Source: an uncultured bacterium
GTDB lineage: Bacteria > Patescibacteriota > Gracilibacteria > Absconditabacterales > Absconditicoccaceae
Direction of reading: 5' to 3'
Assembly: GCA_963552955.1 (NCBI GenBank)
Contig: CAUVLQ010000007.1
Coordinates: forward strand, 1,200-65,199
DNA length: 64,000 nt
Shown: positions 3,681 to 58,163 of the stretch, piece by piece
Numbering within the stretch: position 1 is the stretch's first letter
Layout: the number at the start of each line of letters is the position of its first letter
Notes under the pieces: generated by a model
The model's input: the letters and a program-made list of their open reading frames with translations, nothing else
Databases searched by the model: none
Told to the model about the DNA's origin: nothing
Position numbers and translations under genes: made by a program

Positions 3681-5126
3681 GTGATGGAGTATGTGATTAC
3701 GGTTGGGCTGGAGATTCATTTGAAACTAGCGACAGCGACCAAGATTTTTTGTCCCTGTAAAAATGAGCAAAATCTGGATGATAATCATCCAAATACAACA
3801 GTATGTCCAGTATGTACTGCGCAGCCTGGTGCTTTGCCGCAGTTGAGTGAAGAAGTTGTAAAAAAGGGATTGCTTTTAGGGAAAGCGCTCAAATGTGTGG
3901 TTCAAAATCCTTCATCATTTGATAGAAAGTCGTACTTTTATCCAGATTTGCCGATGGGATATCAGATTACGCAGTTTTATCGTCCGATCAATGTTAACGG
4001 TCAGCTTTCTTTTTTTTCTGAGACCTTTGATGAGGAGAGAACCGTAACGATTACTGACGCTCATCTGGAATGTGATACTGCTAAAGTATTGCATTATAAT
4101 GGTAAAATGTTGCTAGATTTTAACCGTGCAGGGACGCCATTGATAGAAATCGTAACGGGGCCAGATTTTCAGAGCGCTGATGAGGCTGTTGCTTTTGCAA
4201 AGGAGATTCAGAGGATCGCAAAATATAATCAGATTTCTGATGCAGATATGGAGAAGTGACAGATGAGAGTTGATGTAAATGTTTCGATTAGACCTTCACT
4301 TGATGCTCCGTTTGGAACGAGAGTTGAGCTGAAAAATATTAATTCATTTTCTGCGATCAAAAGAGCGATTGAAACTGAGGTAAAAAGACAGCTTGCATGC
4401 CGAGAAACAAATGAGCCAATCAATCAGGAGACAAGAAGACGAGATGATCTGAAAGGAATGTCCTTTACGATGAGGAGCAAGGAAGATGCGCTTGATTATA
4501 GATATTTTCCAGAGCCTGATTTGCCAGAGCTTCAGTTAAAAAAAGAGCTCTTGGATGAGGTGAATGCTAGTGATATCTTGCTTCCTTATGAAAAAATTAA
4601 AGAAATGAAATCTGATTTCGGTTTTCATAAGGAGTTTATCAATGTTTTGATCAATGATAAGGAAGTATTAGATTTTTTCTATGACTTGGTGAAAATGGGC
4701 TTTTGACCGAAGCTTGTAGCGAAGCGGATTGCAGGTCCGATCAGTGCCTATATGACTGCGAATGCAGTTGCGATCTCTGAATTAAAAATTGATAGGGAGC
4801 AGTTAATCAGCTTTTTTAAGCTTGCAGAAGAAGGTAAATTGATAGAAAATCAGTTGAAGATTTTGATGGATGAGTTGCTCAATCAGTGAGGTGATTTGCA
4901 GGAAATTATCAAGGAGAAAGGATTTGATGCTCCTCCTGTTAGTGAAGATGAGATTATTGAAGTTGCGAAGGGGGTTTTAGATGTGAATCCTCAGATTGTT
5001 GAGCAGTATAAAGGTGGAAAAGTTACAGTGATTGGGTTTTTTGTTGGGCAGGTGATGAAACAAACGCAATGAAAGGCGAATCCAAAGCAGATTCAGGAGA
5101 TTATGACAAGATTGTTGTCGGCTTAG
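3681..5126 (+). CDS. gatB: aspartyl/glutamyl-tRNA(Asn/Gln) amidotransferase subunit B
   Basis: VITVGLEIHLKL, CPVCTAQPGALP, FDRKSYFYPDLP, DMEK-G-QMRVDVNVS (G is TGA 4257-4259). C-terminal GatB/YqeY domain VIGFFVGQVMK. Four in-frame TGA. TAG stop 5124-5126. Start is GTG 3681 or ATG 3684. Confidence 0.95.
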
Positions 5127-9108: not shown

Positions 9109-9168
9109 AAATCATATACTTGTATTCTGAATATGATTCTTTCTCTTTTATCTCAATCTAAAAAAAAG

Positions 9169-10500
9169 ATGAAAAATCTGATTTTTGTTTTATTTTTAGT
9201 CTTTGGGTTTACTTTTTCATTCACTTTTGCGCAATTTTCTGATAGTGAGCAGAGTCCCTATGCGAGTGCAATTGCTCAGTTGGCGAATCGTAATATTGTA
9301 AAGGGGTATCCAGATGGGACTTTTAAGCCTCAGCAGGCTATTACCCGTGCTGAGCTACTAAAGATTATTCTCTTGGCGGCGAATGTTGAGCTTTCAACTG
9401 GGCAAGAGAGTTGTTTCTCTGATGTTCCAAAGGAGGAGCGGTATGTAGATATCGTGTGTTCTGCAAAGGCGATGGGAATTGTGAAGTGATATGATGATTG
9501 AACCTTTAAGCCCAATCAGACAGTTACTTTTGTGGAAGGGCTGAAAATGGCGATTGAGGGATTTAAGGTGCAGACCAGAGATGTGAAATCAGATTTTTGG
9601 TATGCGAGGTATTTGGATTTTGTCCATCAGAACTGAATTTTCTCTCAATATGCTTATTATCCAGAGCAGAAGTTGACTCGTGAGATGATGGCGCATTTGG
9701 CGATCAAGCTTTTGGAGGGGCTTTCTGGCAGCTGGAATTATACTAGAAATGTGGAATCTCTTGGCTGTGGAAAATCTCAGCCTTCAACTCCTCCTTCTGC
9801 TGTTATGGTCAATGGAGTAGAGAGGCATTTTATCACTAGTGTTGGGAGAAGCTATTCCTCATCAAAACCCGCAAAGCTTGTATTTGCTTTTCATGGTCGC
9901 ACGAGTGATAATGCGAGTCTTGGATATTATGGGATAGAGGGGGCGTCTGATGGAAATGTGATTACGGTCTATCCTGCAGGTTTACCAGAAGAAGGACCTC
10001 AGAGAAATCGAAGAGATCCATGAGATAAAGTTTCAAATCTTAGGGATTATCAGCTTTTTGATGAGATAAGAAAACTGATTTCAGAGCAGTATTGTATTGA
10101 TCCAGGAGAAGTATATGTGGTTGGACATTCACTGGGAGGTTGGTTTACGAGTATGCTTGGATGTGCTAGGGCTGAGGCGATTCGCTGAGTTGGGATTGTA
10201 GCGGGAAGTCCAATGCGTTTTCCTACCTGTTTAGCTCCAACTCCTGCGATTATTTTTCATAATCCAAGTGATAATCTTGCCTCTTTTGCCTGAGGAGAGC
10301 AAATTCGTAATCAGTATCTCAAGCAGAACCAGTGTTGAGCTGATACGATAGTCTATGAGAATAGTTATGGGATGGAGTGTGTAAAGTATACAAGCTGTCT
10401 TCCAACTTCTCCTGTAGTGTTTTGCAAATATTCTGAGGGAAATCATATGCGGCCAAGTTGAGCAGAACAGTTGATGCGAAAATTTTGGAGTGAACAGTAA
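9169..10500 (+). CDS. secreted SLH-domain protein fused to PHB-depolymerase/LpqC-type esterase
   Basis: Signal peptide MKNLIFVLFLVFGFTFSFTFA. SLH-like repeats IVKGYPDGTFKP and VK-G-YDDGTFKP. Esterase part AFHGRT, VVGHSLGG (GxSxG nucleophile), EGNHM-CGG-PSG matching the GGGHtWPG motif. Alternative start 9133. Confidence 0.75.
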
Positions 10501-24297: not shown

Positions 24298-25044
24298 TTA
24301 TGCTTTTTTTCACTGATTTGCAACTGCCTGAATAAGTGCTGCAATTTCTTCAGGATCTCCAAGAAAATAGTCTTTAATAAGGTTCATCTCATCATCAAAC
24401 TCAAATACATAGGGCACAGCAGTTGGAAGATTGAATTTAAGGATTTCTTCCTCAGAAAGGTTTTTGAGGATTTTGATTACTCCTCTGAGACTATTTCCAT
24501 GTGCAGCAACGAGAATTTCTCATTCCTGTTTGAGGGTTGGGAGTATTGTCTCCTCTAGATAAGGGAGTGTACGAGCAATACAATCCTTGAGCGATTCAGT
24601 AAGTGGGAGATCGGCTGGATTGATAAGTGCATAGCGAGGATCTAGTAGTGGTGAACGAGGATCCTGTGGATCAAGTGGATCTGTTGCAATATCATAGCTT
24701 CTTCTCCAGAGAAGTACTTGTTCTTCTCAGTATTTTTCCGCTGTTTCGGCTTTATTGAGTCCTTGGAGGGTTCCGTAATGTTTTTCATTGAGTCTTCGGC
24801 TCTTTTCAACTGGGATTCGGTCAAGATCCATTTGATCAAGAACAGTATTTAGTGTTTTTACAGCTCTTTTTAGATATGAGGTGAATGCTTTTTTGAAGAA
24901 GAAACCTTCCTTTTTTAGCGTTTGACCAGCTTTTATTGCTTCTTGCTGTCCTTTTTCAGTGAGGTCAACGTCTGTCCATCCAGTAAATCTATTTTCTTGA
25001 TTTCGGGTGCTTTCTCCGTGGCGGATCAAAACGAGTCTTTTCAT
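24298..25044 (-). CDS. gpmA: 2,3-bisphosphoglycerate-dependent phosphoglycerate mutase
   Basis: [18 protein letters not shown] catalytic His motif. [17 protein letters not shown]. Three in-frame TGA. ATG 25044, TAA 24298-24300. Confidence 0.9.
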
Positions 25045-36193: not shown

Positions 36194-37837
36194 ATGAGCC
36201 AAATAACTTTGTCAGAAAAGGAAGTGAGAACACAAAAAACTCATAAAATGAAAAAGATGGGGATTCATCCCTATGCTCAGAGTTTCCAGAAGAAGGATCT
36301 TATTAGCGATATTATTGCACAGTATGAGGGGCAGACACTTCGTGATAGTGAGGAGGTGGTTTTGAATCCTCAGGTGCAAGTTCAGACTGCCGGTAGAGTA
36401 ATGCTTTATCGTTCTCATGGGAAGCTTGCGTTTGCTAAAATTTTGGATAGTAGTGATCAGATTCAGTTAATGTTTCACAGAGATCACTGTAAGATTCTTA
36501 AGACGATTACCAATTCTAATGGGAAAAGTGAGGATGTTGCTGTTGATGTGCTTGAAAATGCTGATACTGAATCAGGAGAACTTTCTGCATATAAATTCAT
36601 GGAGAAGATGGTTGATCTTTGAGATTTTATCGGAGTAAAGGGAGAGGTTTTTAAGACACATAAGGGAGAACTTACGATTTTTGTTTCAGAATTCAAATTT
36701 TTGTCTAAGGCGATCAGACCCTTGCCTGAAAAGTTTCATGGACTCAATGATCAGGAGGAGCTTTATAGAAAGAGGTATCTAGATATGACGATGAATCCTG
36801 AAACCTATCAGAGATTTTTGTTTAAGTCAAAGTTTTATCAGGTTTTGAGAGATTTTTATAGATCTAGAGGATTTACTGAGATTCAAACTCCAATCTTAGA
36901 TAATGCAGCTTCTGGAGCTGCAGCAAGGCCTTTTATTACGCATCATAATGATTTTAATACTGATGTATATTTGAGGATTGCCTTTGAAACTTCTCTTAAA
37001 AAAGCAACGGTTGGTAGGTTTGAAAAGGTTTTTGAGATAGGTCAGGATTTTAGAAATGAAGGATCGGATCCTTCTCATGTTCAGGAATTTACTCAGGTAG
37101 AGCATTATGCTGTGTACTGGAATTATGAGGATAATATGAAGTTTACTGAGGAGATGTTTGATTATCTTTTTGAGCATCTTGGGCTAGAAAAGAAGCTTAA
37201 GGTAAAAGATAAAGACTGAATTGAGAAAACGGTTGATTTTACAACTCCTTGGAAGAAAATTGATTATACTCAAGGGGTAAATAAGGCTAGTGGACTTAAT
37301 ATCTCTAAGTATGGGATTGATGATGCAGATAGACTTAGAGCAGACATTCAGGCAAAGGGAATTACTTTTGAGGGCATGGAAAATATGGGAACCACTACGC
37401 TTATTGACTATTTGTACAAAAAGGTGTTGAGACCAAAGATTGTAGGTCCAGCATTCATCTATAATTACCCAGTGATTATGCAGCCTTTGGCGAGAGTTTC
37501 AGATGCTGATGAGCAGATTGTTGAGCAATTTCAGCTTTTGGTGAATGGATGGGAAATCTGTAAGGCATATTCTGAACTTGTAGATCCAATTTTGCAGCAG
37601 GAGAACTTTGATCTTCAGGCTGAGGCAAGTAAAAAATGAGATGATGAAGCTACAAGTGGAGATGACGCATTTGTTGAGGCGATGGAATATGGAATGCCTC
37701 CTCAGTCAGGATTTGGTATGGGACTTGAGAGGATTTTAGCGATTTTGACAGAACAGGAAAACCTCAGAGATGTTGTGATGTTCCCACTTATGAAGGCTAG
37801 AAATCAAGATATTACCTCAGAAGATGAAGAAAAATAG
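36194..37837 (+). CDS. lysS: lysine--tRNA ligase (class II)
   Basis: OB-fold N-domain. KRYLDMTMNPE, FTEIQTPIL (motif 1), FRNEG (motif 2), FGMGLERI (motif 3). Three track ORFs in one frame joined by TGA. Confidence 0.95.
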
Positions 37838-41845: not shown

Positions 41846-42637
41846 ATGAAAATTATTTCTCGAAATGTTAATGGGATTAGAGCTGTGCTTCAAAAGGGCT
41901 TTCTTGATTTTATAAAGCAGGAGAACCCTGATATTCTCTGTCTGCAGGAGGTAAAAGCCTTTGAACATCAACTGCCAACTGAGGTGAGGTTTGCTATGCA
42001 AGAGTATGAGTATATTTGGCATCGTTCAGACAGGCCTGGGTATGCGTGAACTGCTATCTTTTATAAAAAGTCGCTTCCAATTTCAGTAAAGCATAATGCT
42101 TTTCAAAATCCTGCATGTTTTAACGATGATGGGAGAGTAACTGCCGTTGAATGGTCAGATTTTTTGCTTTTGAATATTTATTTTCCCAATGGAGGAGATA
42201 GAGCGGATGGAACAGAAATGCTTAGCTATAAGCTCGATTTTTATAAACAGTATCAAGGGTTTGTTGCTCAGAAAGTTAAAGAATGAAAAAAGGTAATCAC
42301 AACCGGTGATTTTAATATCTGTCATCGTCCGATTGATATTGCGAGACCAAAGGAAAATGAGAATTCAATTTGATTTCTACCAATTGAGAGAGTTGAGATG
42401 GACAAAATGGAAGAAAGCTGACTTATTGATGTTTTTAGGCTTCAGAATCCTGATTTAGGAGAGAAGTATACTTGGTGGAGTTATAGGGCTGGAGCGAGAC
42501 CAAGAAATGTTTGATGGAGATTGGATTATTTTTGGGTAAGTGAAAATTGTTTAGATCAGATCTGAAAAATGGTGCATTACGATCAAGTTTTGGGTTCTGA
42601 TCACTGTCCCATCGGAATTGAGATAGGGTACTCCTAG
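41846..42637 (+). CDS. xth: exodeoxyribonuclease III
   Basis: [51 protein letters not shown]. Confidence 0.9.
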
Positions 42638-42715: not shown

Positions 42716-43306
42716 TTACAGGTATTTTTCTGAGATGATTTTTTGCAGCTGGGATTGAATTTCTTCGATGGAAAGATTTGCATTGATTGGTTCTCGAGAG
42801 AACTTTTGAGCGAGGTTTTGATGAACAAATCTTACTTTATTCATTAGCTCGTTATTTTGTTCATGTTGGTGAACTTTTTCAATTCCAGAGCTGAAGCGTT
42901 CTCCATCAAAGAAGAATGCAAGGTCTTCTTTGTGTAAGTGAGAGTTGATTTTTTCGAGGAAAGCTTGGTCTCATCAGGCTCCAGTTCCTCGTGCGATACC
43001 AGTTCAAGTATAGTCTTCTGCGATGATCCAAATTCAGTTTTCTAGCTTATTTTTTACTGTAGAATCGTATTGTGTGCGGTTGATGACTTGTAAAAGTTGA
43101 AATTCTGATGAAGAAAGCTGGTTTGGATTTCCTTCTCTGAGATAGGCGTTGAGTAATGGTCAAGAGGGAGCTAAGTCATAAATCGGGTATTTAAGATATT
43201 CGGCTTGAAGTCCTTTTTCTCTTAATCGGTCGATGAGGAGGTGGGCTTGTGTTGTTTTTCAGAGGTTATTGATACCGTAGAGGACGATGAGTTTTCCCTT
43301 TTCCAT
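42716..43306 (-). CDS. tmk: dTMP (thymidylate) kinase
   Basis: LIVLYGINNL-G-KTTQ P-loop (G is TGA). Layout and size (196 aa) fit Tmk. Not in the ORF track. Confidence 0.8.
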
Positions 43307-45390: not shown

Positions 45391-45461
45391 TGGGGAATCG
45401 TCTAATGGTAGGACACCGGACTTTGACTCCGTTTGTCCAGGTTCGAATCCTGGTTCCCCAG
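45391..45461 (+). tRNA. tRNA-Gln(UUG)
   Basis: U1-A72 acceptor TGGGGAA/TTCCCCA, anticodon loop CTTTGAC, T-loop GGTTCGAATCC. CCA not encoded. Confidence 0.85.
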
Positions 45462-45471
45462 GGAGTGTGAT

Positions 45472-45546
45472 TGCGGAGTAGAGAAACGGTATCTCGTCGG
45501 GCTCATAACCCGAAGATAGGTGGTTCAATTCCATCCTCCGCAACCA
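45472..45546 (+). tRNA. tRNA-Met(CAU), initiator-like
   Basis: Acceptor TGCGGAG/CTCCGCA. Anticodon stem TCGGG/CCCGA carries three consecutive G-C pairs. Loop CTCATAA. CCA encoded. Confidence 0.8.
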
Positions 45547-45552
45547 AATTAA

Positions 45553-45625
45553 TCGGGAGTAGCTTAATTGGTAGAGCATCAGACTCTGAATCTGAGGGTT
45601 ATAGGTTCGAGTCCTATCTCCCGAG
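45553..45625 (+). tRNA. tRNA-Gln(CUG)
   Basis: U1-A72 acceptor TCGGGAG/CTCCCGA, anticodon stem TCAGA/TCTGA, loop CTCTGAA. Confidence 0.8.
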
Positions 45626-45659
45626 TATCTTGATTTTTATGTATAAGGTAGTCAGTTAT

Positions 45660-45741
45660 GCCGGGATGGTGGAACTGGTAGACACGCTTGGCTTAGAACC
45701 AAGTGCCTTACGGTGTGCAGGTTCAAGTCCTGTTCCCGGTA
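45660..45741 (+). tRNA. tRNA-Leu(UAG), class II
   Basis: Acceptor GCCGGGA/TCCCGGT, anticodon stem CTTGG/CCAAG, loop CTTAGAA, long variable arm. Confidence 0.85.
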
Positions 45742-45891
45742 TTTGATTATCTTATGAGTATAAAAATCTGAACTTCGTAGTTTGGTAGACTCAGACTTTG
45801 GAAACTCGACATTGAATGAAAAAAGTCGTATAAAAAGTAAAAAATCTCTTGAAAATGGGTCTGATTTCAGTATAGTAATCACCATCGCCAA

Positions 45892-45964
45892 TCCGAGATA
45901 GCTCAGTCGGTAGAGCAAGTGGCTGTTAACCACTGGGTCGTGGGTTCGAGTCCCACTCTCGGAG
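45892..45964 (+). tRNA. tRNA-Asn(GUU)
   Basis: Acceptor TCCGAGA/TCTCGGA, anticodon stem AGTGG/CCACT, loop CTGTTAA. Confidence 0.85.
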
Positions 45965-45997
45965 AGTTGATACTCTTTATATTTGATAATTTTTTCA

Positions 45998-46261
45998 ATG
46001 CCAATTAAGAAGTCAGCAATCAAAGCTATGAATAGATCTCAAACTCTTGCTAAGAGAAACTATGATTTCAAACTTAGAATGAAGATGGCTATGAAAAAAT
46101 TCCTTAAGGGAGTTGAAGCTAAAGAGGCTTTGACTGTTGAGGATCTAGCAAATGTTTACAAGGCTATTGATAAGGCTGCAAAGGTTGGTGTTATCAAGAA
46201 GAGAAATGCCTCAAGAAAAAAGTCTAGAATTTCAAAAGCATTTGATACTTTGAAGAAATAG
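45998..46261 (+). CDS. rpsT: 30S ribosomal protein S20
   Basis: MPIKKSAIKAMNRSQTLAKRN...KAIDKAAKVGVIKKRNASRKKSR is typical bS20. Embedded in the tRNA array. Confidence 0.9.
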   Translation: MPIKKSAIKAMNRSQTLAKRNYDFKLRMKMAMKKFLKGVEAKEALTVEDLANVYKAIDKAAKVGVIKKRNASRKKSRISKAFDTLKK

Positions 46262-46288
46262 AGATCTAAGTCCAGTATTGGACTTTGT

Positions 46289-46364
46289 GCCAGCTTAGCT
46301 CAATAGGTAGAGCAACCGCCTTGTAAGCGGTAGGTTGTCGGTTCAATTCCGACAGCTGGCTCCA
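46289..46364 (+). tRNA. tRNA-Thr(UGU)
   Basis: Acceptor GCCAGCT/AGCTGGC, anticodon stem ACCGC/GCGGT, loop CTTGTAA. CCA encoded. Confidence 0.9.
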
Positions 46365-46396
46365 TTTGTACTTTAAGTTAGATGATAGTTATAGTT

Positions 46397-46473
46397 GGGG
46401 TGGTAGTTCAGCCGGCTAGAACGCCTGCCTGTCACGCAGGAGGTCGAGGGTTCGAGTCCCTTCCATCCCGCCA
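46397..46473 (+). tRNA. tRNA-Asp(GUC)
   Basis: Acceptor GGGGTGG/CCATCCC, anticodon stem CCTGC/GCAGG, loop CTGTCAC. CCA encoded. Confidence 0.9.
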
Positions 46474-46487
46474 CTTCTAACTTTAGT

Positions 46488-46562
46488 GGTCTTATCGTCT
46501 AACGGCTAGGACAGGAGACTTTCAATCTTCTAATCGGGGTTCGATTCCCCGTAAGACCGCCA
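46488..46562 (+). tRNA. tRNA-Glu(UUC)
   Basis: Acceptor GGTCTTA/TAAGACC, anticodon loop CTTTCAA. CCA encoded. Confidence 0.9.
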
Positions 46563-46569
46563 TTTTAAT

Positions 46570-46646
46570 GGGTGATTAGCTCAGTTGGCTAGAGCATCTG
46601 CCTTACAAGCAGGGGGTCATAGGTTCGAGTCCTATATCACCCACCA
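46570..46646 (+). tRNA. tRNA-Val(UAC)
   Basis: Acceptor GGGTGAT/ATCACCC, anticodon stem TCTGC/GCAGG, loop CTTACAA. CCA encoded. Last host feature before the phage-like element. Confidence 0.9.
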
Positions 46647-46676
46647 TTTAAGACTGTTGACTTCTTAAAATAGAAG

Positions 46677-46707
46677 GTCGTACGAATTGTTTCGTGCGGC
46701 TTTTTTT
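46677..46707 (+). terminator. rho-independent terminator of the tRNA array
   Basis: 10 bp stem gtcgtacgaa / ttcgtgcggc followed by T7. Confidence 0.75.
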
Positions 46708-46851
46708 GTGTACAACGAATAGAGCTCTCCGCATAGTATTGAATCTTACCAGTGCTACACAATGCAGAGAATCTGCACCCTAAAGGTCTTATTAAATTGC
46801 ATTGTGGTGAGAGGTAGCACCTCATCGCTATGCAATCTAATAAGACTTTTT
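46708..46851 (+). other. candidate structured non-coding RNA ending in a long terminator-like hairpin
   Basis: tgtgta...tacaca enclosure. gcaga-gaa-tctgc hairpin. Then a 9+7 bp helix gtcttatta-a-attgcat ... atgcaat-c-taataagac (46786-46845) followed by T6. No credible ORF. Confidence 0.3.
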
Positions 46852-47291
46852 TCAAATTTGCAATCTCAAAGACTTTGTCGCCTCCAATAAGGAGATAAGA
46901 GAGAGCATCACAGTTAAAAGAGTTGTTAGGTTGCGACTCTTTATATCTGCTTAGGCTAATACTGATGGTTAAGTACACAATTTTCTTAGTAGTAAAAATT
47001 CTGAGTGCAGTAATGATTGTACTTTGGATCCGGTTTAATCTTTCTGTGCTCCTACTGATTGGTGTGCCTTGTATCATTAGTATTGCTTGATCAGAATGAT
47101 GGTTGCCTCAACCAAAAAAGAGGCAGAGAACTTTATTTGTTAAGAATTACCTATGCAAATAAAGTTCATGTATAGAACTGAAGATTGAGATTATATCTTC
47201 AAGTTCTCAGGAGAATATGTGGGGTGCGTATTTGTACCGCCCCACAGAGTACAGAAATTCATCAAACTTTTAGGTCAATACTTGGTATAAG

Positions 47292-48314
47292 ATGAGAAAA
47301 CTCAAGGGACAAAAAGACCTTGTGAATTACTCAGCCAAGATAGCCTTAGAGTTTGGGAATGTAGCTCGTGCAATTCTCTACTCGCAGATTATCTATCGGC
47401 GAGATATTAAGCAAAGGTCTGAATTTTATAAGACAGACAAAGAACGATCTTTAGAGTTATGATTATGATTATCAGAAATCAAATATACAAAAAAACGGCT
47501 GAAAGATAACTGATATATCATAACTCAGCATAAAAGATTAGATCATTCCACAAGTTATATTGTGGAAGAAAATCAGCTCAATACCTTATTGATAAAGCTG
47601 TATTGAGAAACTTATCAGAACAGGGAGCATTGTCAAAATTGACTATCGGTAAAGTCAGAATTGGCTATCGGTAAAGTTAAATCTGACGATAGCGAAAGTC
47701 AAAATTGACTATCGGTAAAGTCAGAATTGACGTTCGATATAAGAACAGAAACTACAACAGAGATTACAACAGAGAGTGTAGAGAGAGTAGAGCAACCTCC
47801 ACCCACACAATTTGATAAAATCGAATTTGTTGGGAAAATGAGAGATGCAGAAAAAAGAGGAAGTGTTTATCTCTCGACCTGGAACAAAATCACTGGTAGA
47901 AATGATTTCCTTACTGAGGAGATTAAAAAGAAACTTTTCAATTTTTCAAATCTGAGTTTGCAAGATTTCGCTCTCAGAGCAGAAAAATTTGAAGTTATTA
48001 AATCGCTTATTCTAGCGAAAAAAATGGAAAAATATTTCTTCAGCAGGATTCGAGAGCGAGATTTTGGACAGTTTCTAGCAAAGTTTAACGACTTTTGAGG
48101 AACTGACGAGGAAATTGTTTCCAAACTCGCAATCTTTACTGAGGTTAAGAAAGCTTTGAGAATCCTTGCTACTCCTGAAGCTTCGCCAGTCCCAGAGCAA
48201 AAACCGCTGAGCGAAGAAGAGAAACAAGAACAAAAAGCAAAGCTAGAACAAGCAAAACAGCAACTTTTATCCAAGTTATCCATTTCTTATGACAACAACA
48301 CAATTAGCCACTAG
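47292..48314 (+). CDS. phage replication initiator / replisome-organizer-like protein containing internal iterons
   Basis: ATG 47292 is in frame with ORF 47727-48098 (only TGA between them) and ends at TAG 48312-48314, overlapping the recT start. N-terminal HTH-like NYSAKIALEFGNVARAILYSQIIY. Internal DNA repeats encode QN-G-LSVKSEL twice. Confidence 0.55.
47632..47729. repeat. iteron-like repeats (candidate replication origin) inside the initiator gene
   Basis: Perfect 32 bp direct repeat gtcaaaattgactatcggtaaagtcagaattg at 47632-47663 and 47698-47729. A third ctatcggtaaagt copy at 47665-47677. Inverted repeat gctatcg/cgatagc at 47664-47670 and 47687-47693. Confidence 0.7.
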
Positions 48315-49107
48315 AGACTTCTTTCAGAGGGAAGATGTCGTGCAGAAATTCCAAGAATTGCTTGGGAAAAGAGCAAGTTCGTTTTTAACCTCAGTTTTGT
48401 CAGTAGTAAGTCAGAACGATTCGCTCGCTAAAGCAGATCCAAAAACAGTATATATGGCTGCACTTACCTCAGCTACGCTTGATTTACCTATCAATCAGAA
48501 CTTAGGTTTTGCCTATATCGTACCATACAATGGGCAAGCACAATTCCAGATGGGGTATAAGGGGTTTATCCAGCTTGCATTGAGGTCAGGACAATTCCTC
48601 ACAATCTCAGCAGCTCCAGTGTATGAGGGGCAATTGATTGAGGAGAATCCTCTTACTTGATTTGTTTTTGATTGGAAGGCAAAAAAATCTGAAGTCGTGA
48701 TTGGATATGCTTCTTATTTCAAGCTTCTAAACTGATTTGAGAAGACTTTCTACATGACCAAAGCCGAAATTGAGAAGCATGCAAACAATTATTCAGCACA
48801 ATTCAGGAAGAGCCAAAGCGGACTTTGGAAAGATAAGTTTGACGAAATGGCGACAAAGACCGTGATTAAGCTTCTGCTTTCTAAATTTGCTCCACTTTCG
48901 GTTGAGATGCAAAAAGCAGTGATTGCAGACCAGGGGGTGTTGCAAGATGAGAATTTTGATAGCGTAGAATACCCAGACAACGATCAAAATGAGATCATTT
49001 CTGTTGATCTTGATGAACAGATGAGGGGAATGACCGCTACGAATGAAGTGAATAAAAATACCGTCACTGAGGAACAATCAGAAGCCGAAAAATCAAAATC
49101 ATTTTAA
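48289..49107 (+). CDS. recT: RecT-family single-strand annealing recombinase
   Basis: SFLTSVLSVVSQN, LDLPINQNLGFAYIVPY, FQMGYKGFIQLALRSGQ, IGYASYFKL, KTVIKLLLSKFAP. Two ORFs joined by TGA. Confidence 0.85.
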
Positions 49108-49126
49108 CCTTTAAGCACTAAAAATC

Positions 49127-50032
49127 ATGTGATACGTTGAAGATAACAGAGGCTACATTACCGCCTCGAAAATTAAGCTCTTCATGAAATCAAAGGAAGC
49201 TTATAAAAAAGTTTATGTAGATGAGGTAGATACCTCGTTTATCAAAGAATCTAAGAGCCTAGAGAATGGAACAATCGTTGATAGCTATATTCTCACTCCT
49301 CAGCAATTTGTTCAAGATTATGCAATCCTTGAGGGGACAAAAAAAGATGATCTTATCAGACAGTGCCTTGAACAGAATATCCCTGTAGAGAAATCTGATA
49401 AGGTTGATGATCTCAAGGCAAAACTCGTAGGGAATAAGCAAGTTTTGACTGATGGAGAAGTTGATATGGTGAAAGGCATTGAAGCTGAACTCAAGAGACA
49501 ACCACTCTTTGATTTCTTCGGAAGAACTGAGAATCAAAAAGAAATCATCGTTGAATACAAAGGCTTCAAACTCAAGGCAAAGATGGACCGCTTAGATCTT
49601 GAGAACAAAAAAATCAGAGACCTCAAGACAAGTAAAGATATTGAATACCGCCCAATGATTGATATGTCGCAGATGGAGTATAGCTTAATCAATTCAGACG
49701 AGTATCAGTATGGATTCCAGCTCTCATTCTATGCAGTCTTGTGTTATATTCAGTATTGAGAGTGGTTTGATGGAATTTTGGATTGTGTAAAGACGAGTGG
49801 AAACTATGCTTACGAGGCTTATTTTTACCACAAAGATACCCTCAAAAGAATTGCCAGCTCAATACTTTTCCCAGCTCTTGATGCGTTGATTACTTGCCAT
49901 CAGAAGAATAATTTTGAAGACTCTGAGGAAAGAAATTCTAGAGGGGAACTATTGAATGAGAGATACTATCCAATTCTGGACTCAGCAATCCAAAAGGACT
50001 TTAGAATCATAGAACCAGCTTTTATTTGCTAA
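49127..50032 (+). CDS. PD-(D/E)xK exonuclease (phage recombination exonuclease)
   Basis: Directly follows recT. KAKMDRLD ... IRDLKTSK forms a D...D/ExK motif. ATG 49127 is in frame with ORFs 49184-49759 and 49778-50032. Confidence 0.65.
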
Positions 50033-50044
50033 TTTTACAAGAAA

Positions 50045-51370
50045 ATGAGCCAAAAAATTGAATATATTGCTGTAAAAAACTTCAAGTGAATAAAAGAACT
50101 TGAAGTCAGCAACCTTTCTCGCTTCGTAGCTGTTTTCGGAAAAAACGGAGCTGGGAAAACCAGCTTTATCGAAGCCATCAAGTCAGCAATCAAAGCTGAT
50201 AAGTGAGTCAATTCTAAGGTTAGAATTGGAGAGGCGAAAGGCGAGATTGAGGTTAAATTTGAAGATTTCGTGATTAAGAGGATTGTTTGAGAGAATGGGA
50301 AACTTATTGTAGAGCATAATGGAGAACTCGTAGCTAAACCTCAAGCTTGGTTAGACTGAGTTTTTAAGGGGACGATTGGTGATCCGCAGAAGTTTATCAA
50401 CCTCCACAACAAGGAGAAAATCAAATATCTCCTTGAGACGCAAGGTAAAAAGCTCGAGTATGATGCTTTAGAAAAGCAAAGAGAAGTAAAATTTGAGGAG
50501 AGAACTAATCTTCATAGAACCTACCTCGCAAAAAAAGAAGAGGTAGATAAAACTGATACTTCTGCTTTTGAAGTCCTCGAGAATGCTATGGTTGATCCTA
50601 CCGCTCTCCAGAATCAACTTAAAGAAGCCGAGACCCACAACTCAGGTTGGCATGAACTCAAGGCAAGAGTAGAGAAGTGAGAAACGGTAATTGATCAGAC
50701 CAATTCGGAGATTAAGGCGATGATTGATGGTATTGAGAGCATAGATCGTCAGATCGAAATGCTCCAAAAAAAGAAAGCAGAAGCAGAAAAAAATCTGACT
50801 ACAAAGCAAGAGTTCCTTGATAACGCTTCTTGTCAATTGGCTGATTTGAGAGACAAATACGAGAATTTTGACAAGATTGATACAACCGAAATTCTTGCTC
50901 AGCTTGAAGCTCACAATCAATCGCTTGCAAAAAATGCAGAGATTAAAGCCAAAAAAGAGCTTTATACTCAGCAAGTGCAGGCGAGGAATGATTTACAGGC
51001 TCAGTGGAAAGAGCTTGATAATATGGTCAAGGAGATCGAACAAAAACAGAATGATCTCATCAAAGACCTTAATTTGAGCTATCAGCTCAAGTTGGAAGAG
51101 GGGATCATGTATGTATTTGTCCATGATAGCCGAATCCCACTTGATGAACTCAATACTGCTCAGCAGTTAGAAATCGGCGTTGATATTTGCCTCTCTTGAC
51201 CTAATGAGATCAAAATCATCACAATAGAGAATGCTAATGCTCTTGACCCCAATACTCTTGAGAGAGTAAGGGAAAAGATAGAATCCAACCAAGCACAATG
51301 CTTCTTAGAGACGGTATATAGCACAGGGTATGATGAGATAACTATTGAGGATTGAGAACTCAAGAACTAA
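50045..51370 (+). CDS. SMC/SbcC/RecF-like AAA ATPase with central coiled coil
   Basis: N-terminus IEYIAVKNFK-G-IKELEV...VAVFGKNGAGKTSFIEAI (Walker A). Long coiled coil. C-terminal ITIENANALD (Walker B-like). Confidence 0.7.
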
Positions 51371-51501
51371 TTCAGAATTTTATTCTTATTCAAAAGAATG
51401 ACCCACTGAATGATTATAACCTTAGTATTCTTGGTTATTTACATATATCTCATTCGGAAAATTCTCGATGAGAAGTAAAATTTTATTTATTATGTATTGA
51501 A

Positions 51502-52623
51502 ATGAAACTAAGCATAAAAAGAAAGGAGCTCCTCACTATGTTAGAGTTCGCAAAAAGATTTATTGAAAAACAATGAACATTGCCAGTCCTCAAGAATGTC
51601 TGTCTTAGAGCTAGTGAAGAGTGACTGAGATTGAGGACATCAGATATGGAGAAAGATTTTTCTGCTATTCTCAGAGAGGCAAAAGTCTCTGAAGAATGAG
51701 CGATTACGGTCAATGTAAACCAGCTCTACAACCTTCTCAAGAAAGACAAGAGTTATATGCTCCAACTAAGCAATAACGATGATGGTCTCGTAGTCCAATG
51801 AGACGAGCTCAAAAGCGTCCTCTATGGTATCCCTGCTGGAGAATATATCGCAGAGATTGATAGACCTGACTGTACGATCTCTTGTAGCACTTCACTACTC
51901 TTGGAGGCTATAGAGAAAGTGAGCTATGTGATCACGGAGAAAAGTTTCTCGCCTGTTCTTACAGGAATGTTGATCAAGCAAATAGATAACCTTGTGCATT
52001 TCGTTGGAACAGATAGTTTTAGGCTCGTGAGATATACCGCAAAAGCTGATCTTGGAGAGATTGAGGCAATTGTTCCAGTAGATGCACTCAAAGCCATAGC
52101 TCCTATTCTAAAATATGCGATCAGCATTGGAGCTACAAAAATAATGCTTTGAATAGATTATCAGAAGCTTTCAATCAGTATCTCAGGGGGAGATCAGGAG
52201 ATTGTAGTCACTACATTGCTGATTCAAGGGAATTATCCTAACTATGATAGAGAGGAGATTATTCCTACTAGTTATAGTGGATATATGACTGTTGATAGAC
52301 AAGAATTTTTGCAGAAATTACCTCAGATTATGGCTCTTACAACACCTTATCTCAACTATCCAGTAAAGCTTGAGGTAACGGATAATCAGCTTACACTATC
52401 AAGTGGAAAGACAGACAATGGAGAGCTGAATGCTACCTTATCTTGTCATTGTTTTGGACGGGTTGGGAACTTTTCAGTCAATGGTAGATACCTACTAGAC
52501 TTTATAAAAAATGACTCTTCTCCTCAGATTAAAATTGAGATAGTAGGAGGCGAAAAGCCGATCAGAATAACAGGTATGAATGACAATAATGTAGAGTATA
52601 TTGTCAGACCGCTTGTAAACTAA
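51502..52623 (+). CDS. DNA polymerase III beta sliding clamp-like protein (phage-encoded)
   Basis: 373 aa. LPVLKNVCLRA, SFSPVLTGMLI, FVGTDSFRL, LIQGNYPNY, FSVNGRYLLDF follow the DnaN domain pattern. Three frame-consistent ORF pieces. Confidence 0.8.
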
Positions 52624-52729
52624 TCTTGATCTATCAGGGCAACTCACCTAGCAGTTATGAAGTTCTGCTGGGTAAGATGCCCTTGATGGGCGGTATTAAA
52701 CTTTATTTTTATTTCTTATTTGTATTGAG

Positions 52730-52930
52730 ATGGAAACTTTTGAGACAAAAGAGATTCATGAGGATGATATTCCATACACTAGTGGTTGGGGATATGACTT
52801 ATTTGAATGAGGGTATTTAAAACCTGAGAATATTCTAAAGAACCAAGAGGATATTGATGAAGTCAATAATGCGATAAAGGTTCTTGAAAAATACAAGGCT
52901 ATATGGGATAAAAACAATTGGTATTTATAA
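52730..52930 (+). CDS. small hypothetical phage protein (66 aa)
   Basis: ATG 52730. One TGA. Acidic. Ends at TAA 52928-52930, just before the hairpin tctcccc/ggggaga. Confidence 0.35.
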
Positions 52931-52958
52931 TCAGCTTTCTCCCCTGATGGGGAGATAT

Positions 52959-53066
52959 GCAGAGGTGGCGGAATAGGTAGACGCTTTTGGGTAACGCATA
53001 ACTACAAGGGGAGATAGTGCCTGAGGAATCAGCCCCTATGCGAGGTGCAAATCCTCGCCCTCTGCT
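52959..53066 (+). ncRNA. aberrant 108-nt tRNA-like gene (Leu-type D-arm, oversized central region)
   Basis: Perfect acceptor GCAGAGG/CCTCTGC. D-arm GCGGAATAGGTAGACGC (Leu-like). T-arm (G)CGAGG-TGCAAAT-CCTCG(C). 56 nt in between do not fold into a normal anticodon arm plus variable arm. Confidence 0.5.
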
Positions 53067-53129
53067 CAATTTTGATTTCTACTTTTGTAGATTTGTATTA
53101 TTTTTACCTAGTCCTTTTAGACTAGGTGT

Positions 53130-53187
53130 GCAACAGTAGCTCATTGGTAGGGCGCTAGAGGTGTTGGTTCGATTCCAACCTGTTGCA
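53130..53187 (+). ncRNA. 58-nt tRNA-like gene lacking an anticodon arm
   Basis: Acceptor GCAACAG/CTGTTGC. D-arm GCTC-ATTGGTA-GGGC. T-arm GTTGG-TTCGATT-CCAAC. Only 9 nt (GCTAGAGGT) lie where the anticodon arm and variable loop should be. Confidence 0.5.
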
Positions 53188-53340
53188 ATTGATGATCGAC
53201 ACTAGTGTTATGTGGCGTGCACACTACATAATACTAAGGTTGTTCATTTTCGGAGGGGACGCCCTCCTGTATACAGAGGACGGCTAAGCCAAGAGAGCGA
53301 GTAAGCTCTCCCTCTGGAGATTTTAGATGAAAGTATCAGA

Positions 53341-53832
53341 ATGAAAAAAATACTAGACGTCTGCTGTGGTGGCCGCACCTTTCGGCGAGATAAGAATAAT
53401 CCACTAGCTGAGTATATGGACATAAGAAGAGAAGAAGCCTGATTTATCACTGCGAGACCTAACTTTGTTGTGGATCCAGACTTTGTGGCCGACTTCCGTG
53501 CTATCCCAAGACCCGACAATTCTTATAAGCTCGTAGTATTTGACCCTCCGCATTTAATTCATGCAGGAGAAAAATCTTGGCTGAAAGGTAAGTATGGTAA
53601 GCTTACCAAGGAGAGCTGGCCAGCCGATCTTAAGCAGTGATTCAGAGAGTGTATGAGAGTATTAGAGCCGTATGGAACTCTCGTATTCAAGTGGAACGAG
53701 AATCAAGTTAAGCTCCATGAAGTCCTCAGGGCTATAGACTATACTCCACTCTTCGGAACGAGGAGCGGTAGGAATGGAACGACAATACGACTAGTTTTTA
53801 TGAAGATACCAAAAGAAGAATGCAACCAATAA
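53341..53832 (+). CDS. small SAM-dependent DNA methyltransferase (DPPH motif)
   Basis: ILDVCCGG (motif I), LVVFDPPH (motif IV, DPPY-type). One TGA. Segment TF-CGG-CGA-DKNNP. GC-richer than its surroundings. Confidence 0.7.
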
Positions 53833-54839
53833 CAGTTCTCTCCCTCTTCGATGGGATGAGTTGTGGTAGATTAGCTCTAGAGAGAGCTGGAATACCTGTT
53901 GAGAATTATTGGGCTTGTGAGATTGATAAATATGCAGCCCAAGTAAGTCGTAATAATCGAGATGATGTGTTCCACCTATGAGACGTGAGCGATCTCAGCT
54001 GATGGGACTTCTCAGAGGATGTCTGTTGAGAACCAATTGATCTTCTCATCGGAGGAAGTCCTTGCCAGTGATTCAGCAATGCAGGTAAAGGGCTGAATTT
54101 TGAGGATTCTCGCTCAAAACTCTTCTTTGAGTTTGTTCGCATTCTTAATGAGGCGAAGCCGAGATGTTTCCTATTGGAGAATGTAAAAATGAAGAAGGAA
54201 TGGCAGAATATCATCTCAGAGAATCTATTCTGAATACAGCCAGTGGAGATTGATTCTGCTCTCGTCTCAGCTCAAAGGAGAAAAAGACTCTATCGAGTAG
54301 GGAAAAGGAATGAAGACTGATCATATTCTCAGGTTGTAGTTAATCAGCCAGAAGATAAAGGGATTTTGCTTAAAGATATTCTAGAGGACAAAGTTGAGGA
54401 ATCGTACTATATCAACCAAGAAAAAGTCCAGAATACGGATACTAAGCAGTCAAACTTTCTTAAGAAAATTTTGTTCAATATAAACCCTAGTGGTAAAGGT
54501 ATGAATGGCAATGTTTATAATCCTGAGCATAAAAGCCCAACGCTTACTACGAACAAAGGAGAATGAATTAAAATAATTCAGCTTCCTAGAGGCAAGAATA
54601 TCTGAGGGATTATAGACAGAAAAACACCTACTTTGTCAGCGAATTTGTGGCAACATAACAATCTACTACAGGAATGATACAGAGTAAGGAGACTCACGCC
54701 GATAGAATGCGAGAGGTTGCAGACATTGCCTGATGATTATACCACAGGAGTCAGCAACTCTCAGCGTTATAAGATGCTAGGGAATGGATGGACGATTGAT
54801 ATAATTGCCCATATCTTTAGGGAGATGTTCCACGATTAG
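53820..54839 (+). CDS. dcm: DNA (cytosine-5)-methyltransferase
   Basis: LSLFDGMSCG (I), GGSPCQ-G-FS (IV), LLENV (VI), QRRKR (VIII), TPIECERLQTLPDDYT, GNGWTI (X). Overlaps the upstream gene by 13 nt. Confidence 0.9.
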
Positions 54840-54922
54840 CTTTTCGGTATTACCGAAAAGGTCAGAGATGTACGAGAATTTCGTACAGCTGAAATCAGAT
54901 TTATTTATTATTATTTTTACAA

Positions 54923-55192
54923 ATGACAAGAGAAGAGAAGTTAGAAGCCATATACGATGAAATTGATAGAACTATTGTATTTTTTAATCAGTTTTGAGGT
55001 ATAGAATTTGATTGAGAATGAGATGATTATACATTCCTCCCAATTGTGATTGGTGATATTATGGAATACTTCAAAAATTCACGATGATATGTTGACTGTA
55101 TTATTGGGCTTTGGAATGATTACGCAAATCCCCTATATCTACAATCAGATGAGTGTATAGACTATGTTTATTCACTGATACCGAAATCATAA
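54923..55192 (+). CDS. hypothetical phage protein
   Basis: 89 codons, four TGA, frame checked to TAA 55190-55192. Confidence 0.4.
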
Positions 55193-55225
55193 GTCAGATT
55201 TTTTATCTTTTTTTTACGAAAGCAG

Positions 55226-55501
55226 ATGAATATAGAAGTAAAAACTCTCCCAAATGGACTAAGATACATACCAATGACAATGGTTGAAGCAATGAAAATT
55301 TTTTGATGATTGTGAATTTGTGATAATTGTAATTCAGGGAATTTTGGAAAATGAAACGCTTATATACCAGTTCTTAATAAATGGTATTGTAAAAAATGCT
55401 TTGAAGGATGGAAAAAAAGAGCAAAATTTTATCCTGATGATGTCAAATTTGAGGAAAACAACATTCAGTATGTCATTTCTGTAACTCAAAATAAATCTTA
55501 G
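55226..55501 (+). CDS. hypothetical phage protein with CxxC...CxxC (zinc-ribbon-like)
   Basis: ICDNCNSGN...WYCKKCFEG. 91 codons to TAG 55499-55501. Confidence 0.4.
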
Positions 55502-55550
55502 AGTAAACAAAAACGATAAATCAGAATTTTATTTCTTTATTAACTATAAG

Positions 55551-55943
55551 ATGAATGAAAATTTATTACAAAAACTAACTGAGGTAGGAGATAAGATTGT
55601 CACAGCTATTCAAACAGGACTCGACCAAGCGCCAGCGTATATTCAAGACTTAGCTCATAGGCGAGTATCTTTACAGTTATGGAAGAAATCTGTATCCTTG
55701 TTTATTTTGTTTGTTATATTCTGTCTTATTATATGGCGAGCCGTATACCTAATCAAGGCAGGAAGAGAAGAAAAGTGTGACTACGGAGACCCATCTGGAT
55801 ATTATGTAGGGGCATTCTTTGTTTTATTGATTCCTGGTACTATTCTTCTTATTTGTATCTATAGTGACATCTCTACTATCCTTTGATATTCTATGGTCCC
55901 AGAACTATATATTCTGCAGGATATTAAGCAGTTCTTGCAGTAG
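55551..55943 (+). CDS. hypothetical phage membrane protein (two TM helices)
   Basis: ORF 55551-55886 extended through TGA to TAG 55941-55943. TM helices SVSLFILFVIFCLII and VGAFFVLLIPGTILLICIY. Confidence 0.45.
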
Positions 55944-55975
55944 ATGATTTATTTTATCCTTTATGTAATTTAACA

Positions 55976-56344
55976 ATGCAAGAACTAGAAACCTTACTTA
56001 ACTCTCTTATACAGAGAGGGTGGAAACCGTTTAACTACATTTGAACAACTGAGAAAATAGAGGTAGGCGATAATTTTGAGATTGCTATAGTCTTTATAAC
56101 TTGAGAATTCTCCTATCATACCCTCCGTGATTTGGTAGTTCTCGAGAGCTGATTCTGGCAGTTTATATGTAGGAACAAACTATATAAAAATAACAAAGAA
56201 AAATTTTGGCAGAACGTGTCTAAGGTATCAGTCAATATCTGATGGTTTCCTCGTAATTATGAATACCGACTCCTAGAATCAGCACTGATTCCTGAGGAGG
56301 AACTGGGACAGTTTTTAGTTGATAATATTAAAATACAATGATAG
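55976..56344 (+). CDS. hypothetical phage protein
   Basis: 122 codons, five TGA, frame checked to TAG 56342-56344. Confidence 0.4.
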
Positions 56345-56479
56345 CAAACCAAATACTATGAACATTTGTATGAGTTACATTATGCTTATTTATGTATTCA
56401 CTAGCAACAGAAGATAGGGCTTGAATATTTGCAACTACAATTGCCTTGGTTGTACTTATAATTACTTACATTATTGTCA

Positions 56480-56695
56480 ATGGCAATGGAGGAATTTAAG
56501 GTATGAGATAAGGTAAGATACACTCAAGACTACCTCGATCAGCGAGAGCTTGTAGTTGGGATACCCTATCCGTTTCAGGATACCTATACCATCAAGGAGC
56601 AGCTTACAGCAATCTCCTACTTGGCAGACTGAGAGAAGCCTGAGCATAGGGGGAGAATAGTCCATCCTCGAGGGATGGAGAAAATAGAAGAATAA
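56480..56695 (+). CDS. hypothetical phage protein
   Basis: 71 codons, two TGA, two CGA, frame checked to TAA 56693-56695. Confidence 0.35.
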
Positions 56696-56726
56696 TTCTG
56701 ACTTTTATTTACTTTCTATACTTAGA

Positions 56727-56954
56727 ATGAAATTAAGAATTGTCCAACTTCCCACTGGAGAATACGAAGTTCAGAAATTCTATGATAACAAAAAAGATTC
56801 TCCTTATTGGGCTCACTACTACCATAAAGAACCTTGATGACCTTTCCCGATGCCTGACCCAAATCAATCAAGATTTTTTACTCTAAAAGCAGCAGAAGCG
56901 TTTATTAAAATGCTTTTAGAAAAACTGAAGATTGTAAAGGAATTTGAAATTTAA
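56727..56954 (+). CDS. hypothetical phage protein
   Basis: 75 codons, MKLRIVQLPTGEYEVQKFYD..., two adjacent TGA (KEP-GG-PFP). Confidence 0.4.
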
Positions 56955-57080
56955 AAAATCTGATTTGTCGCCTTCAAGTATCTAAAAACTCTTAAGGGTT
57001 GACTTTCTAAAAGATAAGAGTATAAGAAAACCACTATATTGATTTTCCAGTGGTTTTTTATTTTTATTTTCAAAATACTC

Positions 57081-58112: not shown

Positions 58113-58123
58113 GTAAATTCAAT

Positions 58124-58163
58124 AAAAAAAGAAGTCGGATACCAGACTTCTTTTTCTTTTTTT
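58124..58163. terminator. bidirectional terminator between the + and - strand modules of the element
   Basis: A-run, then stem gaagtc/gacttc with an 8-nt loop, then a long T-run. Confidence 0.75.

Follow-up and report, generated by a model that had tools for sequence, protein, structure and literature searches.

Reassignment of the arginine codons CGA and CGG to tryptophan, in addition to that of UGA to glycine, was predicted with Codetta for the Absconditabacteria (Shulgina & Eddy, eLife 2021; PMC8629427). The prediction was based on Pfam column counts, BUSCO alignments and tRNA features, and its authors note that only experiments can settle the matter. A 2026 paper in Nucleic Acids Research (NAR) repeats the CGA/CGG to tryptophan assignment for the Absconditabacteria and treats it as established (PMC13092985). 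Here, we examine both codons in a 64-kb stretch of contig CAUVLQ010000007.1 (the window; GC content 36%), which comprises host genes and an integrated prophage. Since the reassignment has been published by Shulgina & Eddy, it is not new as such, and the initial annotation of the window had cited that prediction correctly. We conclude that the Absconditabacterales host very probably reads CGA and CGG as tryptophan besides UGA as glycine, judging from comparative evidence on the codons, and we add to the published record a further oral species, a clean demonstration of codon exchange, a prophage with its relatives and a problem in database annotation.

The window shares with the published code the clade, the three reassigned codons, the GC content (0.36 within the paper's range of 0.26–0.38), arginine written mainly as AGA, a tRNA(UCG) with G73 and without A20 (here found in relatives) and the excess of CGA over CGG. 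It differs in representing an additional oral species. CGA makes up 37 per 10,000 codons in host open reading frames (ORFs) and 43 in prophage ORFs, at or slightly above the ceiling of <37 in the paper, which counted Pfam-aligned codons only, so that the values are not strictly comparable. Codon-level exchange statistics and an integrated prophage, not treated in that paper, are added here. NCBI translation table 25 (SR1 and Gracilibacteria) has UGA as glycine in common with the window but keeps CGA and CGG as arginine, which is contradicted by our data (tryptophan exceeds arginine by 44 bits). Reassignment of CGG alone to tryptophan is described for Anaerococcus and the order RFN20 of the Bacilli (genus Onthovivens in PMC13092985) (PMC8629427, PMC13092985). 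These cases resemble the window in that an arginine CGN codon has become tryptophan in a low-GC lineage with a decoding tRNA lacking A20. However, CGA stays arginine there by means of tRNA-Arg(ICG) and no tRNA(UCG) is present, whereas in the window reassignment concerns mainly CGA, and relatives have a tRNA(UCG). Prophages of oral SR1 bacteria have been shown to use code 25 from TGA alone, with CGA and CGG nowhere mentioned (mBio 2023; PMC10746230). The prophage studied here is like them in residing in an SR1 genome, in its dense in-frame TGA and in its portal, capsid and related genes, but differs in that the reassignment of a sense codon is shown in it.

Meaning of CGA and CGG in the window and its clade

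The lysyl-tRNA synthetase (LysRS, 36194–37837) of the window is 97–98% identical to that of several oral metagenome-assembled genomes (MAGs) labelled 'candidate division SR1', 81% identical to that of SR1 human oral taxon HOT-345 and 73% to that of RAAC1_SR1_1, and 14 farther loci labelled Gracilibacteria, Peribacteria or Parcubacteria reach 50–60%. A YqeY-like protein without TGA (33257–33694) has verbatim copies on human oral metagenome contigs, contigs of the same species, up to 1.03 Mb long, also encode the window's S20 ribosomal protein, and a near-identical portal protein carries the NCBI name Candidatus Absconditicoccaceae, order Absconditabacterales. By these matches the source of the window is a human-oral Absconditabacterales (SR1) bacterium, an oral SR1 species present in many public metagenome assemblies, and the contig falls into the predicted clade as the initial annotation had supposed. 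If translation is ended at TAA and TAG only, 91% of the window is taken up by 75 ORFs that do not overlap, and TGA occurs in frame as a sense codon in nearly all of them. UGA is read as glycine, as in table 25, because TGA of the window aligns with GGA, GGT, GGG and GGC of relatives (164, 54, 42 and 31 alignments, respectively). CGA and CGG are found 86 times in the accepted ORFs (73 CGA and 13 CGG).

The meaning of the two codons is apparent from homologues of standard-code organisms, to which 30 of the 86 sites could be aligned. Tryptophan (W) forms the majority in 10 of these columns, phenylalanine or tyrosine (F/Y) in about 9 and an aliphatic residue in 3, while 6 columns are variable and none has an arginine (R) majority. 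If tryptophan columns are taken as ~1.3% of positions, ~0.4 would be expected in place of the 10 seen (binomial probability ~4e-12, our own estimate from the counts). In these proteins, AGA, AGG, CGT and CGC align with arginine columns, and arginine is written in the organism of the window only as AGA, AGG, CGU and CGC. Conserved tryptophan columns are occupied by CGA in GpmA (aa 14 and 83), exonuclease III (Xth; aa 6), Tmk (aa 171), an esterase (aa 293), a phage methyltransferase (aa 150) and the phage portal protein (aa 234), and by CGG, with fewer sites than CGA, in GatB (aa 348, 4/4) and the methyltransferase (aa 15, 6/8). The host genes concerned, together with the LysRS gene, are:

3684..5126, plus strand: gatB, with CGG (aa 348) at 4725..4727 at the start of the GatB/YqeY domain and further CGA at 4401-4403 and 4440-4442
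9133..10500, plus strand: SLH-domain esterase, with CGG at 9439-9441 and 10450-10452 and CGA at 10009-10011 and 10477-10479
24298..25044, minus strand: gpmA, with CGA at 25003-25005, 24817-24819 and 24796-24798
36194..37837, plus strand: lysS, without CGA or CGG, used as a clade-wide ruler
41846-42637, plus strand: exonuclease III (Xth), with CGA (aa 6) at 41861..41863
42716..43306, minus strand: tmk, with CGA at 43226-43228, 42989-42991 and 42794-42796

In GatB, the CGG codon at aa 348 corresponds to tryptophan in all four solved structures, and relatives have CGA, TGG or CGG at this site. The CGA codon at aa 253 aligns with F/W/F/F in the structures and with CGA or TGG in relatives; the one at aa 240 aligns with V/M/L/L and with TAT or TAC. 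GpmA contributes two nearly invariant columns, W in 106/108 homologues at aa 14 and in 103/113 at aa 83, and a variable one at aa 76 (D 39, W 29). Its homologues and a few of Xth were obtained with a concatenated query of four proteins, which matched almost only long multi-domain proteins with a GpmA domain and was useless for Tmk and SPL. CGA at aa 6 of Xth is W in 7/7 homologues. The AGA, CGT and CGC codons of GpmA align with R, as do the AGA, AGG, CGT and CGC codons at conserved columns of both GpmA and Xth. Compared with the thymidylate kinases of Plasmodium and human, the three CGA sites of Tmk align with Y/A, Y/F and W/W in the order listed above; the first of them (43226-43228, minus strand, in the motif LLID-CGA) had been rated equally compatible with arginine in the initial annotation. 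CGA at aa 293 of the esterase is the W of a GWAN motif in 4/5 homologues. CGG at aa 440 (10450-10452), proposed earlier to fall on a tryptophan motif, is W in 2/5 homologues, both of them esterases of the PHB-depolymerase type (HSHWP/GHTWP), and G, A or P in the other three, so that the proposal fits this type of esterase without being decisive. Given a one-residue shift, CGA at aa 449 probably matches the tryptophan of an IWxFF motif, and CGG at aa 103 is the sole recoded codon within the SLH repeats. Overall, the columns are tryptophan or aromatic ones; dominance of arginine or lysine, which the initial annotation had named as evidence against its own reading, was not seen. All codons and coordinates cited there proved exact (GatB 4725-4727, esterase 10450-10452, methyltransferase 53383-53388, Dcm 54294-54296), the arginine positions cited from proteins such as the protease, exonuclease and nuclease do use AGA or CGC, and its placement of the GatB codon on a tryptophan is borne out by the structures.

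As a small analogue of Codetta, ten window proteins were scanned twice against Pfam with CGA/CGG read either as W or as R. Summed over the ten proteins, W exceeded R by 44 bits. The gain amounted to +6.5 bits for GatB_N, +6.0 for GatB_Yqey (124.8 with W, 118.8 with R), +2.5 for His_Phos_1, +7.7 for Exo_endo_phos (102.2 with W, 94.5 with R), +4.3 for Thymidylate_kin, +0.2 for ABC_tran, +5.5 for SLH (106.3 with W, 100.8 with R), +3.1 for DNA_methylase, +8.7 for Phage_portal, +1.6 for FAD_binding_6 and +2.2 for NAD_binding_1. In a sum over five proteins W scored highest (973.2 bits; Y 961.2, F 956.7, R 940.9), which makes tryptophan the best-supported one among the plausible meanings.

A second line of evidence is independent of translation. 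Window proteins were searched by tblastn (code 25, CGA/CGG masked) against 100 related loci of the reassigned clade, and the codons beneath each alignment were compared site by site. At 21 of the 102 aligned TGG sites of the window at least one relative has CGA or CGG, and at none does a relative have an arginine codon. Arginine sites (AGR/CGY; 396 aligned) show another arginine codon in at least one relative at 144 positions and CGA or CGG at only 3, which makes the difference between 21/102 and 3/396 highly significant (Fisher p = 6.9e-13). Conversely, the 58 aligned CGA/CGG sites are occupied in at least one relative by TGG (13 sites), the sister codon (12), tyrosine or phenylalanine codons (4, namely TAT/TTT), arginine (3), glutamine (3) or lysine (2). 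Exchange between CGG and TGG in particular was seen in genes g24, g36, g28, g66 and g68.

LysRS served to delimit the code across 82 related loci, using 3 invariant tryptophan and 16 conserved arginine columns. Loci with at least 63% LysRS identity mix TGG, CGA and CGG at the three tryptophan columns and never have CGA or CGG at the 16 arginine columns. Among the 14 loci at 50–60% identity, 12 use CGA/CGG freely at the arginine columns and never at the tryptophan columns. The other two (L076 and L078, ~59%) show the reassigned pattern without CGA/CGG at the 16 arginine columns, and L076 has one CGA at an invariant tryptophan column. This hints that the reassignment, or possibly codon avoidance, extends beyond the core Absconditabacterales, as was suspected for some Gracilibacteria in the 2021 paper (PMC8629427). 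L076 is labelled Candidatus Peribacteria and L078 only 'bacterium'.

Decoding tRNA and alternative meanings

Decoding probably follows the mechanism proposed for the clade, in which a tRNA with the anticodon UCG, plus a CCG isoacceptor, would be charged by tryptophanyl-tRNA synthetase (TrpRS) rather than by arginyl-tRNA synthetase (ArgRS), because it has lost A20 and carries the discriminator G73. CGA would meet no competition from an inosine-type tRNA-Arg(ACG), and CGU and CGC would be decoded by tRNA-Arg(GCG). CGA and CGG now account for about one third of the tryptophan residues. The ten tRNA genes predicted in the 64-kb window by ARAGORN and Rfam include none for CGN or UGG. Nine stand in one host array:

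45391..46646, plus strand: tRNA genes for Gln, Met, Gln, Leu and Asn, the S20 gene, then tRNA genes for Thr, Asp, Glu and Val

Within ~1.4 Mb of related loci, ARAGORN predicted a tRNA(UCG) for only two related genomes (L021:3275-3347 and L023:2815-2887), whose LysRS is 81% identical to that of the window. When the acceptor stem of this tRNA is taken as the standard 7 bp, its discriminator is G73 and its position 20 is U, in line with the provisional tryptophan criteria of Shulgina & Eddy (G73, no A20). In its anticodon arm (19 nt, CAUCGGUCUUCGGAACCGA, with G37) it matches canonical tRNA-Arg(UCG) of many phyla exactly; it differs from them everywhere else, and it is unlike the tRNA-Trp(CCA) of the clade. 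In a metagenome scan with this arm, 110 of the 111 canonical tRNA-Arg(UCG) with the same arm among the matches listed have A20. These matches come from unrelated bacteria and were used as a control only, with the discriminator bases left aside; no SR1 copy was among the matches listed. Because the anticodon arm equals the canonical arginine arm, the tRNA(UCG) of the two relatives seems to have arisen from tRNA-Arg(UCG) by an identity switch or loss of arginine identity, and descent from tRNA-Trp is not favoured. A normal arginine identity, which would have spoken for the standard meaning, is not displayed by the only tRNA(UCG) recovered, as it lacks the arginine identity element A20. The same tRNA is presumably present in the window's species, and competing arginine tRNAs would be absent.

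Several points weigh against the tryptophan reading. The tRNA(UCG) or (CCG) of the window's own species was not recovered by these scans: none lies within 10 kb of MraY in this species, where L021 has it (gene order is not conserved), and a longer tRNA(UCG) pattern found no match in viral contigs. G73 is found in genuine arginine tRNAs too, and the tRNA argument therefore rests mainly on the missing A20. The Phage_Mu_F and SPL profiles prefer R (−3.4 and −0.9 bits). The evidence for CGG, with 13 codons in the window, is thinner than that for CGA. Single sites exchange with codons other than TGG, namely portal aa 150 (where relatives have CAA, CGT and AGA, in a column that varies in all homologues), g70 aa 23 (CAA) and g39 aa 61 (CGG, exchanging with CGT); these exceptions fit ordinary non-synonymous change at unconstrained positions. 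The CGA/CGG sites of ABC-F and DnaN may be counted here as well, although their columns are variable in the alignments and uninformative rather than contrary. Finally, a full-text literature search yielded no further paper on the reassignment and no experimental confirmation by peptides or tRNA charging.

Part of these points could also be explained by an unfinished reassignment, in which CGA and CGG are mostly tryptophan and partly arginine, or CGG is decoded less efficiently or differently. The minority sites that exchange with arginine or glutamine codons, the slight preference of the MuF profile for R and the thinner support for CGG would agree with such mixed decoding, and ambiguous translation can be excluded by experiment only, as stated in the 2021 paper (PMC8629427). 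However, CGA and CGG occupy invariant, functionally important tryptophan positions in GpmA, GatB, Xth and the LysRS of relatives, and partial incorporation of arginine would therefore be costly. Moreover, the 16 conserved arginine columns of LysRS are free of both codons in every locus of the clade, and CGG itself stands for W in GatB (4/4), the methyltransferase (6/8) and the SLH domain and exchanges with TGG at several sites, so that we regard mixed decoding as improbable.

Still less probable, to the point of being scarcely credible, is that the codons encode another aromatic or hydrophobic residue, tyrosine or phenylalanine. About 9 of the 30 alignable sites do fall into F/Y columns of the outgroups, the Tmk profile scores Y above W (60.8 versus 57.6) and TAT/TTT exchange occurs at 4/58 sites. 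Nevertheless, the summed profile score is 12 bits higher for W than for Y and 16.5 bits higher than for F, ten columns are specific for W, and TGG is the dominant exchange partner (13/58 sites; 21/102 in the reverse direction). Under a standard code, the pattern would have to stem from misaligned sites, errors of assembly or relaxed constraint in a reduced genome that evolves fast, and some room for this is left by the AT-richness and fast evolution of the genome and by the variability of some aligned columns. A standard code does not account for the recurrence of these codons at identical sites across many independent assemblies, for arginine columns that never have CGA/CGG while tryptophan columns often do (Fisher p = 7e-13) or for the preference for W by 44 bits in the profiles. 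We therefore consider this explanation, to which we likewise give next to no weight, effectively refuted by the comparative data, and retain tryptophan as the meaning of both codons.

The integrated prophage

The prophage and those of its genes that bear on the code are:

46649..64000, continuing past the window end: integrated prophage encoding RecT, a PD-(D/E)XK nuclease, an SMC-like ATPase, DnaN, two methyltransferases, SNase, a portal-MuF fusion, capsid and protease
53341..53832, plus strand: DNA methyltransferase, with CGG at 53383-53385 and CGA at 53386-53388 and 53788-53790
53820..54839, plus strand: Dcm cytosine methyltransferase, with CGA at 53958-53960 and 54294-54296
58172..60175, minus strand: portal-MuF fusion, with 7 CGA, e.g. 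at 59474-59476, 59354-59356, 58406-58408 and 58370-58372

It further encodes head proteins, and its capsid protein is found verbatim on at least 21 contigs and also in IMG/VR. The match to prophage-free strains of the same species stops at 46648, right after tRNA-Val, which in these strains is followed by tRNA-Met(CAU), a tRNA methyltransferase, pilin, SLT, TGT and IF-2. The insertion is polymorphic (window 46570-46700; L231-L236 ~10570-10760). Five strains without the prophage have tRNA-Val and then tRNA-Met(CAU). In the window and two further loci (L229, L230) the prophage directly follows tRNA-Val without a copy of tRNA-Met there. One strain (L236) keeps tRNA-Met, followed by a different prophage with an ERF recombinase.

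The code of the prophage could be read from homologues in phages of standard-code hosts. For the DNA methyltransferase, eight phages of Fusobacterium, Bacteroides, Enterococcus, Acinetobacter, Streptococcus, Porphyromonas, Gordonia and Vibrio were compared, of which those of Fusobacterium, Porphyromonas and Streptococcus encode proteins 42–56% identical to it. The CGG codon at aa 15 corresponds to W in 6/8 phages (Y and H in the remaining two), CGA at aa 16 to F in 8/8 and CGA at aa 150 to W in 8/8, which agrees with the tryptophan or aromatic positions that the initial annotation had assigned to the CGG-CGA pair. In Dcm, the two CGA codons align with F and M of M.HhaI. In a phage homologue of 61% identity (L008), aa 159 is TGG and, in turn, two positions that are TGG in the window are CGA. 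CGA 54294-54296, for which an aromatic or hydrophobic position had been claimed, thus faces methionine in M.HhaI but TGG in the related phage, and this site is not decisive.

Exchange between CGA and TGG among related phages was also seen in the portal-MuF fusion. In database homologues from this phage family, exactly the CGA columns contain nothing but a mixture of R and W, the TGG columns contain an admixture of R, and the columns of true arginine codons are R/K. In distant homologues, the CGA sites are W5/F3/L2, F5, Y4 and L4/Y2. The MuF-domain motif KQW-CGA (58370-58372, minus strand), previously listed among the conserved tryptophan or aromatic positions, has W in family members but L/Y in distant homologues, and does not decide the matter by itself. 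The inferred tryptophan content is 1.29% for the host and 1.47% for the phage (0.86% and 0.97% from TGG alone), and the share of CGA/CGG among tryptophan codons is 0.34 in both. Taken together, the comparisons of the methyltransferase, portal and Dcm genes make it nearly certain that the SR1 prophage uses CGA/CGG as tryptophan, with the same code and at the same rate as the host, as the initial annotation had proposed. The temperate phage beside tRNA-Val depends on the host translation apparatus and has the code and the codon proportions of the host.

The prophage also contains two tRNA-like elements. The one at 53130-53187 (plus strand) is 58 nt long and lacks an anticodon arm, though it has the acceptor, D and T arms; it scores 50.8 bits with the Rfam tRNA model (model positions 1-71, 13 deleted), is not called by ARAGORN and is 99% conserved in L008. 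Upstream of it, at 52959-53067 (plus strand), lies a second, cloverleaf-like element. Its acceptor stem has 7 bp, its D arm is of the Leu type (GGCGGAATAGGTAGACGC) and a T arm is present; an unstructured stretch and a long hairpin take the place of the usual anticodon arm. This element has no Rfam match, its folding energy is ordinary (z = -1.0) and it is 96% conserved in L008. A 'tRNA-Val with 157-nt intron' called by ARAGORN with introns allowed (52800-53500) is an artefact, a chimera of the two separate elements. A related SR1 phage (L009:13180-13273, minus strand) has, at the corresponding place upstream of the methyltransferase, a 94-nt tRNA with the anticodon UCA, a long variable arm, G1:C72, C2:G71, C3:G70 and U73, i.e. 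a Gly-like acceptor combined with a type-II shape that is unexpected for tRNA-Gly. Prophages of other relatives carry a tRNA-Met (L229:15056-15129) and a tRNA-Asn (L236:16406-16478).

Consequences for annotation and further observations

It is fairly likely that temperate phages of oral SR1 bacteria use the sense-to-sense assignment of CGA/CGG to tryptophan for 34% of their tryptophan codons and that this is undescribed elsewhere in the open-access literature searched. Few if any viral genomes may have been documented earlier in a bacterial code with a reassigned sense codon. If true, the code would make it harder for these phages to switch hosts and to exchange genes with oral phages of the standard code, in which close homologues are found. 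Full use of the code, which the window shows for an oral SR1 species and for its prophage, is relevant to the host range of phages and to horizontal transfer in the oral microbiome. Public proteins of SR1 bacteria and their phages contain arginine in place of about one third of the tryptophan residues. This is visible in public portal records (P0121, P0126 and others, among them an NCBI entry 'phage portal protein [Candidatus Absconditicoccaceae bacterium]'), which have arginine at the CGA positions. In the NCBI/ENA proteins of the window's prophage, R and W alternate by column between near-identical sequences because of systematic mistranslation under table 25. Gene calls, database proteins, hidden Markov models (HMMs), structure predictions and phylogenies of the Absconditabacterales and their phages are affected where table 25 (or 11 or 4) is used. 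Candidate peptides for plaque and saliva metaproteomics are RHGEST-W-NQENR of GpmA, MKIIS-W-NVNGIR of Xth (MKIISWNVNGIR) and KLVAK-W-IAGPISAYM of GatB.

Three observations concern other genes of the window and its relatives. Two tandem paralogous lipoprotein-like genes (7537-8259 and 8383-8841, plus strand) have nearly identical N-terminal halves (beginning MKKMRSLAVLALVMVAFYFVGCSASDE and MMKKVRSLVVLALVMVASYFVGCSASDE); 8383-8841 is the shorter copy, and 7537-8259 is unusually rich in tryptophan, with 10 TGG codons. The closest GTDB representative (L011) has ~2.4 kb (1998-4425) where the window has a 460-bp spacer (29351-29813), between homologues of the window genes 28851-29351 and 29813-30349, which indicates a strain-level insertion or deletion. 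In two related oral SR1 loci (L241:12360-16517 and L242:12379-16515), a gene call of 1,380 residues combines an IleRS-type tRNA synthetase with NUDIX and His_Phos_1 domains, an unusual fusion unless it is an artefact of gene calling.

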